Assembly (NCBI GenBank): GCA_964642835.1
Contig: CAZXQA010000001.1
Coordinates: 325,387-389,386 of the forward strand
From: an uncultured Candidatus Saccharibacteria bacterium
GTDB taxonomy: Bacteria > Patescibacteriota > Minisyncoccia > Phycocordibacterales > Zambryskibacteraceae
Direction: 5' to 3'
Length of the DNA: 64,000 bases
Part shown: piece after piece, positions 13,582 to 15,426 of the stretch
Layout: every line of letters begins with the position of its first letter
Numbering within the stretch: position 1 is the first letter of the stretch
The notes under the pieces: model-generated
Databases searched by the model: none
Seen by the model: the letters and a program-made list of their open reading frames with translations, nothing else
Told to the model about the DNA's origin: nothing
Made by a program: the position numbers and the translations under genes

Positions 13582-15426
13582 ATGTATCTCGTCGAGGTGA
13601 TCCCTTTATCGAAGTCTCCACTCGCGAGCTCCCTCTCCTATTTCTCGGGTGAGAAACTCACTCCGGGTACGATTGTCGGTGTCCCTGTACGCTACAAACT
13701 CACCCCCGCCATCGTTATCTCGAGTAAGGATGTGCGCTCCGCCAAATCCGACATTCGTCGTGCCGGCTTTCTCTTAAAGAAGATCCGCAAAGCCGACATC
13801 ATGGCAGCCATCCTCGATCCGTATATTCTGGAAGCGGCCCAAGGTCTCGCCCGCTTCTACGCCGCCCCCATCGGCACCATTCTCACCACTCTCTTGCCAA
13901 AGGTGGCGCTCGATAAACCGGAGATATTTTTCCCCTTAGGGAATACCCGCAAGAAACCGAACGCCCCGGCCCCGCGCGAAACTTTCCTCCTCCAAATGGA
14001 AAGCGAGGAACGCTTCGGACAATATCGTGCTCTCGTGCGCCAAGCCTTCGCGAGAGAAACATCGGTCATGCTTATCGTGCCAACTCACCTCGATGCTGAA
14101 CGGGCGGCCGTTCTCCTCTCGAAAGGGATTAGCGAATTTGTGCATGTCTTCACTCTCGAAGGCCGGAATGCCGCTCGACAAGCTTGGACGACAGCCCTCA
14201 CTGAGAAGCACCCCATTCTCTTTATTACAACCCCAGCAGGCATCCTCTTCTCTCGCCCAGATCTCGACACGATAATCGTCGAGCGCCTGAACTCGCGCGC
14301 CTTCCGCACTCTTGCGCGCCCCTTCCTCGACATGCGAGCGGTAGCGGAACGACTAGCCAAAGCATCCGGTCGCCAACTTGTTATTGGTGACTCGGTTCTC
14401 CCAGTTGAAACATTGTGGCGCGAGAAGCGAGGCGACTTCGGCGAAACAAGTCTCATCCGCTGGCGCTTGCCGGCTGCTACTGCTCGCGTGGTTGATGCGC
14501 GCACCAAACAAGACAGCCACGGTGGGTTCGAGATCTTTACTCCCGAGCTTAAAGAATTACTCGCGCGAGCAGTGAGTGAGAACCGAAGAATATTTCTCTT
14601 CGGTGCTCGTAAGGGCCTCGCTCCAACAACTGTCTGCGGTGACTGCGGTACCGTCCTTCCCTGCGAGAACTGCGGCGCGCCTGTCGTCCTGCATCGACGT
14701 GGCGAGATGACCCTCTACGTCTGTCACGCCTGCAGTGCCACGCGCGAACCTTCGACCCTCTGCGGTACATGCCGGAGTTGGCGGCTCGTCCCTCTTGGCG
14801 TCGGGACCGAAGAGATCGCTCGCCAAGCCTCGCTCCTCTTCCCCGACACGCCGGTCACCATTCTTGATAAAGATCACGCACCCACGGATGCGAAGGCCGC
14901 CGCCGTGGCGGAAGAATTCCGCCACGGCGGCGGTATCCTCGTCGGCACCGAGTACGCCTTCTATTATCTTGACCCCGTTCCCTATTCCGCCGTCGTCTCG
15001 GTCGACGCGCTCTTTTCCATCCCAGACTTCTACATTAACGAACGCGTGTTCTATCTCGTCAGCCGCCTGCGGGAAACCACTCAAACCGAAACCCTTATCC
15101 AAACCAGAAACATTGGTCGCCAAACGCTCGCCTGGGCTGCTCAAGGCAACATTAGCGACTTCTACCAAACGGAGATAGATGAGCGCGAAGCACTTCTTTA
15201 TCCGCCCTTCTCCATCTTCGTTAAGATCACCGTACCTAAGGAGCGGCGAGAGACACTCCAGAGCCTCCGCGAGACCTTCCGTCAGTGGGAACCGGACATC
15301 TTCCGCGACTCGCTCGTCATGCGCGTACCACGCACCGCCTGGCCGGACGAAGAGCTCACCACGAAACTCTCTTTGCTCGGGCCCGAGTTTAGTATTAAAG
15401 TGGACCCAGAAAGTCTCATGGGATGA
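13582..15426 (+). CDS. Primosomal protein N' (PriA)-like. It keeps the Cys-rich Zn region and C-terminal domain, but the Walker A and DExH helicase motifs are degenerate.
   Basis: CGDCGTVLPCENCGAPVVLHRRGEMTLYVCHAC matches the PriA Cys-rich region. At the Walker A position the protein reads FLLQMESEERFGQY instead of GxTGSGKTEVY, and at the DEEH box it reads IIVERLN. Confidence 0.7.
   Translation: MYLVEVIPLSKSPLASSLSYFSGEKLTPGTIVGVPVRYKLTPAIVISSKDVRSAKSDIRRAGFLLKKIRKADIMAAILDPYILEAAQGLARFYAAPIGTILTTLLPKVALDKPEIFFPLGNTRKKPNAPAPRETFLLQMESEERFGQYRALVRQAFARETSVMLIVPTHLDAERAAVLLSKGISEFVHVFTLEGRNAARQAWTTALTEKHPILFITTPAGILFSRPDLDTIIVERLNSRAFRTLARPFLDMRAVAERLAKASGRQLVIGDSVLPVETLWREKRGDFGETSLIRWRLPAATARVVDARTKQDSHGGFEIFTPELKELLARAVSENRRIFLFGARKGLAPTTVCGDCGTVLPCENCGAPVVLHRRGEMTLYVCHACSATREPSTLCGTCRSWRLVPLGVGTEEIARQASLLFPDTPVTILDKDHAPTDAKAAAVAEEFRHGGGILVGTEYAFYYLDPVPYSAVVSVDALFSIPDFYINERVFYLVSRLRETTQTETLIQTRNIGRQTLAWAAQGNISDFYQTEIDEREALLYPPFSIFVKITVPKERRETLQSLRETFRQWEPDIFRDSLVMRVPRTAWPDEELTTKLSLLGPEFSIKVDPESLMG

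Follow-up and report, generated by a model that had tools for sequence, protein, structure and literature searches.

A PriA homologue that has lost its helicase motifs, a probable pseudohelicase, across Parcubacteria and Paceibacteria

The stretch of DNA analysed here, 64,000 nucleotides in length and referred to as the window, covers positions 325,387 to 389,386 of contig CAZXQA010000001.1 (assembly GCA_964642835.1, forward strand) and contains a gene for a homologue of the primosomal protein PriA. The open reading frame (ORF), its domains and its neighbours are listed in Table 1. Two in-frame start codons are plausible for this gene, and its start is ambiguous because gene callers in public assemblies use ATG 13555 but the Met equivalent to ATG 13582 is the first residue in 86% of distant family representatives. 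The latter start was also used in an earlier reading of this DNA made from its letters alone (the sequence-only reading), and residues are numbered here on the resulting 614-residue form. The four-base ATGA overlap of priA with def described in that reading was found at the expected place and was also present in 21 of 80 related loci; def and fmt in turn overlap by 11 nucleotides. The fmt product is short, and its C-terminal domain gave only a faint match. The exact PriA homologue is recorded on three contigs from two sources (NCBI and Logan), and of these contigs the one from the Logan assembly of SRR14271366 was read, its translation being identical to the protein. Family members carry the name 'hypothetical protein' at NCBI and 'primosomal protein N'' at JGI.

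Table 1. Coordinates of the priA homologue, its domains and altered motifs, and the adjoining genes (window positions; residues of the 614-residue form)
Feature	Residues	Position	Strand	Basis or remark
mreB, divergent conserved upstream neighbour		12530..13531	-	PF06723; called start 13531, 23 nt from ATG 13555
priA ORF, probable pseudohelicase	623 from ATG 13555; 614 from ATG 13582	13555..15426	+	stop TGA 15424-15426
3'-DNA-binding domain	1-106	13582..13899	+	PF17764; conservation; fold
Linker replacing E. coli about 106-220	107-133	13900..13980	+	alignment gap
RecA-like lobe 1	about 134-298, boundaries approximate	13981..14475	+	model, fold, alignment
Former motif I (Walker A)	138-148	13993..14025	+	QMESEERFGQY; E. 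coli AGVTGSGKTEVY
Former motif II (Walker B/DExH)	231-238	14272..14295	+	IIVERLNS; E. coli VIDEEHD
RecA-like lobe 2, first part	about 299-350	14476..14631	+	motif IV FGARKGLAP; alignment, conservation
Cysteine-rich region	351-400	14632..14781	+	eight Cys conserved; weak PF18319 match
RecA-like lobe 2, second part	about 401-512	14782..15117	+	LVPLGVGTE kept; E410 = E. coli E492
Motif VI lesion	494-498	15061..15075	+	SRL-RE; E. coli QVAGRAGRAG; aligned as RL-----RET
C-terminal domain	about 513-614	15118..15423	+	alignment, model, conservation
ATGA overlap, priA stop and def start		15423..15426	+	def ATG 15423-15425, priA TGA 15424-15426
def (peptide deformylase), same operon as priA		15423..15989	+	PF01327 on the identical gene in locus L002
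fmt (methionyl-tRNA formyltransferase), short form	255	15979..16746	+	PF00551; synteny

The ORF product is a PriA homologue. Among NCBIfam models the protein matched TIGR00595 (E 5.2e-50, 170.5 bits) from model position 16 onwards, just past motif I, and the remaining NCBIfam matches at E < 0.01 were PriA models too. The only PriA model to align almost end to end (15-566) was NF004069, which has 612 positions; the PRK14873 models ('primosome assembly protein PriA', actinobacterial) showed weak similarity (best E 9e-13). In Pfam, the 3'-DNA-binding domain family PF17764 matched residues 13-106 with 23.2 bits against a cutoff of 22.7, and the PriA zinc ribbon family PF18319 gave a weak match. 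PriA alone was matched when PDB sequences were searched by phmmer with the single sequence (E 1.5e-27), and a family profile of 86 members matched the PDB PriA chains with E 8e-70. An AlphaFold (AF2) model built from 64 homologues reached a predicted local distance difference test (pLDDT) score of 91.6 and a predicted template modelling (TM) score, pTM, of 0.90. When this model was compared with the PDB by Foldseek, PriA chains filled the first nine places (E 3e-34 to 1e-25, TM 0.70-0.77), ahead of Mfd as the next family (E 9e-10, TM < 0.4). The model has the two RecA-like superfamily 2 (SF2) lobes in the PriA arrangement. The sequence-only reading had called the protein a PriA homologue and had aligned its 3'-DNA-binding N-terminus, cysteine-rich region and C-terminal domain with PriA; the call was borne out by TIGR00595, PF17764, the PDB PriA matches and Foldseek, and the domain assignments by Pfam, alignment and fold.

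The helicase motifs were read from three independent alignments: MAFFT with PriA of E. coli MG1655 as reference, phmmer with K. pneumoniae PriA, and the family hidden Markov model (HMM) with PDB PriA. Residues 135-148, quoted in the sequence-only reading as FLLQMESEERFGQY, cover the motif I position, where the P-loop GxTGSGKT is replaced by QMESEER and Arg (R144) occupies the place of the Walker A Lys (E. coli K230). The family-HMM alignment, which begins exactly at this point, also placed Arg opposite the Walker A Lys, and the secondary structure of the AF2 model has a helix after strand 135-138 with R144 in its first turn, the place of the Walker Lys. The two other strings quoted in that reading were likewise present (IIVERLN at residues 231-237 and CGDCG..CENCG..CHAC..CGTC at 352-397), and at the core of motif II DEEH has become ERLN. 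Motif III reads GDSVL in place of E. coli GSATP, and motif V reads GTEYAF--YY in place of GTQMLAKGHHF, with QMLAKGHHF lost and GTE left. Motif VI has a five-residue deletion that takes in the first Arg and leaves one Arg (R497, E. coli R587). HMMER alignments independently gave the same losses at motifs II and VI, and a pattern search of the whole protein found no GK[ST], DExH or GRxGR. The ablation of Walker A and DExH put forward in the sequence-only reading thus held in three alignments and the pattern search, and motif VI was lost as well; motifs I, II and VI were all non-consensus, with no intact GKT or DExH. Walker A was canonical in UvrA (two sites), UvrB, an AddA-like helicase-nuclease, PilB and BipA encoded in the same window, and the loss is therefore specific to PriA.

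Two segments of E. coli PriA were missing from the alignment altogether, namely the stretch before motif I that includes the Q-motif (E. coli 198-220) and the whole winged-helix domain (E. coli about 106-190). The linker found at this place has 27 residues, the lowest pLDDT of any block (55) and a mean conservation of 0.26. The winged-helix domain is not universal among PriAs, and its loss has precedents in the engineered, winged-helix-deleted E. coli PriA of PDB 6DCR and in the short PriAs of NF004069, with which the present protein shares its architecture. In Foldseek, 6DCR gave the best target-normalised TM among near-complete PriA chains (0.74-0.75), higher values (0.77-0.79) being obtained only for the shorter, incompletely modelled 4nl8 chains. 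In contrast to the present protein, 6DCR keeps its ATPase motifs, as we assume the NF004069 proteins do.

While the motor motifs were lost, the parts of PriA that handle DNA were retained. Equivalents of E. coli Y18, K61, Y327, R338, R427, R428, H455 and E492 were kept in 83-99% of the 149 cluster representatives described below, with residue roles assigned after PMC13594977 and PMC5778457. In the 3'-end-binding domain, Y20 (E. coli Y18) was Tyr in 148 of 149 representatives and K66 (K61) was Lys or Arg in 147. The aromatic-rich loop of lobe 1, an aromatic and basic stretch at residues 238-252 (SRAFRTLARPFLDMR), was also kept, with an aromatic residue at Y241 (Y327) in 147 of 149 and Arg at R252 (R338) in 139. 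R343 and K344 of motif IV correspond to E. coli R427 and R428, which line the pore for single-stranded DNA (PMC13594977), and these positions held Arg in 145 and Arg or Lys in 144 of the 149. The eight cysteines (352, 355, 361, 364, 381, 384, 394 and 397; E. coli C436-C479) were 95-100% conserved and are predicted to form two zinc sites inserted in lobe 2. H371 of the cysteine-rich region is the equivalent of E. coli H455 which, like E492, has its role at the interface of this region in E. coli PriA (PMC13594977). In the C-terminal domain R535, P541 and P542 (E. coli R625, P631 and P632) were invariant.

To describe the family, relatives were collected in three sets. A word-indexed search returned 249 relatives, and 117 of the best 120 were full-length close homologues with 45-68% identity. 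An exhaustive HMMER search of cluster representatives (1.84 billion searched, clustered at 50% identity) gave 1,214 matches at E <= 1e-30, of which the best 150 were analysed and 149 were full-length, with 32-63% identity. In a scan of GTDB species representatives, 251 genomes contained the family; the best 80 of the 251 loci were examined and 78 held full ORFs. Together the sets comprised 341 full-length relatives with 31-68% identity and ORFs of 583-750 residues. The best 80 GTDB genomes were labelled Zambryskibacteria, Campbellbacteria, Kaiserbacteria, Paceibacteria/Paceibacterota, Minisyncoccia or Parcubacteria. Many third-party (TPA) metagenome assemblies with the family (loci L004, L009, L011, L015 and others) bear the title 'uncultured Candidatus Saccharibacteria', which looks like a generic label and not a true placement.

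The dead state was identical in all 117 close homologues, motifs I, II and VI were likewise lost in 149 of 149 cluster representatives, and the same was found in all 78 full ORFs of the GTDB genomes. No Walker A was present at the motif I position in any of the 341 family members. Strings of the form [AG]xxxxGK[ST] occurred in 10 of the 341 and were rejected as P-loops on account of their positions, mostly in the motif Ib region near residue 195. As judged from these sets, a dead PriA would be the usual form throughout a large Parcubacteria/Paceibacteria clade and not a peculiarity of one genome. The intact full-length ORFs and the same state across the family argue for purifying selection and not for a pseudogene, and the rest of the protein appears to be under clear purifying selection.

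The lost motifs were replaced in a regular manner. Motif I follows the family pattern Q-x4-[ED]-R-x3-Y, with R144 in 148 of 149 representatives, and motif II follows [ED]-[RKH]-E-[SN]-S. At motif II the first acid (E. coli D320; position 234) was Glu or Asp in 149 of 149, the position of the catalytic Glu (E. coli E321) held Arg, Lys or His in 115, and position 236 was Glu in 139. The protein from the window carries the only Leu among the 149 at this last position (L236, window 14287-14289), the third of the former DExH. Two members with 44-45% identity (P0116 and P0118) have an exact DEEH at motif II, with motifs I and VI still lost; the DEEH is either a relic or a reversion. Conservation of the former motif I and II segments was 0.51 and 0.59, respectively, compared with 0.52 for the rest of lobe 1. 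By this measure the former ATP site is not decaying, and it carries a conserved charged set, [ED]143-R144, R153 and [ED]234-[RKH]235-E236, which probably plays a structural role in place of the nucleotide.

With respect to gene order, def-fmt lay downstream of priA on the same strand in 76 of the 80 related loci, directly adjacent in 63, and mreB lay upstream in most of the 80. No second PriA-like sequence was found within 10 kb either side of the gene in these loci (1.27 Mb), and no second PriA was found in the 64-kb window. In B. subtilis a promoter of the defA-fmt operon is located inside priA according to PMC8359813, which cites Hinc 2006, and this indirectly places priA beside defA-fmt there. 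From this adjacency and the synteny, mreB followed by priA-def-fmt looks like the ancestral priA arrangement. A literature search on priA-def-fmt-rsmB returned no description of the arrangement.

The concept of a natural PriA pseudohelicase is already known. It was established for Deinococcus-Thermus in 2015 with PriA of D. radiodurans, which has Lys changed to Arg, degenerate motifs I and II and no ATPase or helicase activity, and which is able to interact with DnaB and to bind single-stranded DNA and forks (Lopper et al. 2015, PMC4504706). A 2017 review treated Deinococcus as the exception to the conserved helicase activity of PriA (PMC5778457). Compared by description, the two proteins both match motifs I and II poorly, both have Arg at the Walker A Lys and both show a loss that extends through the lineage, and by analogy they would share the role of fork binding and helicase recruitment without unwinding. 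In contrast to D. radiodurans PriA, the Parcubacteria family has wholly lost the P-loop glycines and has an acidic loop instead, has a deletion in motif VI, and lacks the segment before motif I and the winged helix. Because the two phyla are unrelated, the loss is very probably independent of that in Deinococcus, and the Parcubacteria case would represent a second natural lineage that is larger and more degenerate. No account of this family came up in literature searches that paired PriA with the Candidate Phyla Radiation, Patescibacteria or Actinobacteria.

Other PriAs provided further points of comparison. The E. coli alleles K230R (priA300) and K230A/D support primosome assembly and restart without ATPase or helicase activity (PMC5778457), and K230R has the same Lys to Arg change at the same position. 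Those alleles, however, are single engineered changes in an intact helicase and act by the PriA-PriB-DnaT route only, whereas the natural Parcubacteria protein has lost several motifs. Canonical PriA, as in E. coli and K. pneumoniae (PDB 4NL4, 6DGD, 8FAK; TIGR00595), has the domain order 3'-DNA-binding domain, two RecA-like lobes, two-zinc cysteine-rich insertion and C-terminal domain. Fold and domain order are shared with it, as are the aromatic-rich loop, the motif IV arginines and the cysteine-rich interface residues H455 and E492. The present protein differs in its low identity (about 18-20%), the loss of motifs I, II, III and VI, the absence of the winged helix and its sub-cutoff score. 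Actinobacterial PriA is smaller and very divergent (PMC1193525) and, with only weak similarity of its models (PRK14873) to the present family, forms a separate lineage. The family comparison was made with the PRK14873 models of NCBIfam described above. To our knowledge, UniProt flags some actinobacterial PriAs as having no detectable helicase domains.

Taken together, we put at roughly 0.7 the probability that the gene is the orthologous priA of a Zambryskibacteria-like Parcubacteria/Paceibacteria bacterium and that its product is a pseudohelicase which recognizes forks and, with no unwinding of its own, brings in the replicative helicase. Since the P-loop, the catalytic Glu and the arginine finger are lost, no ATP binding or hydrolysis is expected, and on its residues the protein almost certainly can neither bind nor hydrolyse ATP, nor translocate. 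The sequence-only reading had proposed a natural ATPase-dead PriA working only as a scaffold of the restart primosome; motif loss and purifying selection support this proposal, at the level of sequence and fold. It had also stated that helicase-dead E. coli PriA still loads the primosome, which is the case for K230R: this change abolishes the ATPase and helicase of E. coli PriA, yet primosome assembly and restart proceed through PriA-PriB (PMC5778457).

The behaviour of D. radiodurans PriA and of E. coli PriA K230R, together with the conserved residues, suggests a mechanism by analogy. An abandoned fork would be recognized by the 3'-end-binding domain and the aromatic-rich loop. The arginines of motif IV and the cysteine-rich region with its bound zinc would close around the single-stranded lagging-strand template and form a pore with lobe 2. 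The fork-bound protein would then serve as a landing pad to which the replicative helicase DnaB is returned, directly or by a loader. Work from 2026 indicates a need for at least 9 nucleotides of single-stranded DNA in the pore of E. coli PriA, with duplex lagging arms unwound beforehand (PMC13594977). As the pore needs single-stranded DNA, a motorless PriA would be limited to gapped forks or would rely on another helicase, and duplex lagging arms would be opened by another enzyme. The window encodes, at 31413-34367 on the minus strand, a 984-residue AddA-like protein with a UvrD-type helicase (Walker A AGPGTGKT intact) and a C-terminal PD-(D/E)XK nuclease. This protein could supply the end processing or unwinding of which a dead PriA would be incapable.

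A bolder version of the proposal would have a whole major class of the Candidate Phyla Radiation (Paceibacteria/Parcubacteria) restart replication with a motorless PriA whose ATP pocket has become a permanent intramolecular latch, the protein passively clamping the fork and recruiting DnaB directly, with no need for PriB, DnaT or DnaD. Here the acidic loop would lie where the phosphates would sit and would pair with R144, R153, the basic residue that replaces the catalytic Glu and the surviving Arg of motif VI, and the two RecA lobes would be fixed in one DNA-clamping state. We regard this version as speculative and, as a whole, unlikely.

Several observations weigh against the reading of the protein as the orthologous, motorless PriA. 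Its TIGR00595 score remained below 230.35 bits, the curated equivalog cutoff, and the search for a second priA spanned the window and the 10-kb flanks, so that a distant intact copy is possible. No DnaB, DciA, SSB or PriB-like genes were recognized among the window ORFs scanned. We know of no PriB in Parcubacteria or Paceibacteria. The helicase-dead allele of E. coli, for its part, depends on PriB (PMC5778457). The score below the cutoff and the span of the copy search, together with the 'hypothetical protein' label that NCBI gives to all family members, would also fit a diverged paralogue, in which case a normal PriA helicase would be encoded elsewhere and the dead copy would have another DNA-binding role outside primosome assembly. 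Such a paralogue would not be expected in the conserved gene order shared by 76 of 80 loci, and B. subtilis has a defA-fmt promoter within priA (PMC8359813); no second PriA-like match was found in the DNA covered, and duplicated 600-residue genes would be unusual in very small genomes. We therefore consider a paralogue improbable.

Less probable again is that nucleotide is still bound or hydrolysed at a non-canonical site, for example one involving R144 and R497, and that the protein remains a motor of some kind. The strong conservation of the former ATP-site residues (R144, [ED]234 and E236) could be read in this way, as could the two members with DEEH at motif II and the weaker second nucleotide site reported for E. 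coli PriA (PMC5778457). However, the P-loop glycines are gone and the acidic run E140-S-E-E143 occupies the phosphate position; a basic residue or His replaces the catalytic Glu, motif VI is truncated and motif III is changed, and in E. coli PriA K230R by itself kills the ATPase (PMC5778457). Loss of catalytic motifs and weak database scores are also what would be seen in a functionless, decaying gene or in an artefact of misalignment or sequence error. This explanation was rejected as hardly tenable, as far as sequence data allow, since the ORFs were intact in the 341 relatives, even at 31% identity, and held invariant Cys, Arg and Pro residues, the AF2 model was confident, the three alignment methods agreed, the exact protein came from more than one source and the neighbouring nucleoside triphosphatases were normal. 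That the protein belongs to another SF2 family (RecG-, Mfd- or DEAD-like) was the least credible possibility. SF2 helicases do appear in the Foldseek list from rank 10 on, but with TM 0.2-0.4 and E 1e-9 or worse, compared with TM 0.70-0.77 and E 3e-34 for PriA, and the PriA-specific 3'-DNA-binding domain, two-zinc lobe 2 insertion and C-terminal domain are all present; this identity was rejected on the Foldseek gap and the PriA-specific domains.

A number of other features were recorded in the window. UvrC (2969-4216, minus strand) is only 415 residues long and has GIY-YIG, UVR and RNase H-like endonuclease domains, but the helix-hairpin-helix part that usually stands at the C-terminus gave no Pfam match; the genes uvrA (4559-7165) and uvrB (7781-9880) adjoin uvrC. 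Three tRNA-Ala genes with anticodons CGC, GGC and UGC lie within 600 nucleotides on both strands (1219-1800). The region 20001-22000, which adjoins a tRNA-Asn gene (21633-21709) and contains a 2'-5' RNA ligase-like ORF and ORFs without Pfam matches, has a GC content of 0.437 compared with about 0.53 elsewhere and may be a small acquired island. A dnaG primase gene (532 residues) is found directly upstream of a sigma-70 factor gene (35111-37954, minus strand) in the classic dnaG-rpoD pairing, and a type IV pilus gene set at 57215-62538 (minus strand) encodes a prepilin peptidase, a PilC-like T2SSF protein and a PilB-like ATPase.

On the reading of this protein as the priA product and a probable pseudohelicase, a second and much larger lineage, with no fewer than 251 species-level genomes and 149 clusters at 50% identity, would have dropped the motor of PriA and yet kept its zinc fingers and its parts for fork recognition under selection. 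This would strengthen the view that PriA serves above all to recognize DNA structures and to recruit the helicase, unwinding being an accessory function. Replication-restart capacity would be under-called in these genomes because the gene product is labelled 'hypothetical protein' at NCBI. The reading also raises the question of which enzyme opens duplex lagging arms, and with which partners PriA works, in genomes of roughly 0.5-1 Mb. For structural and biochemical work the family offers a naturally minimal PriA with neither winged helix nor ATPase motifs. E. coli genetics had predicted that loss of the motor would be tolerable, and the breadth of the clade and the rebuilt pocket would make it a useful natural experiment on the minimal PriA.

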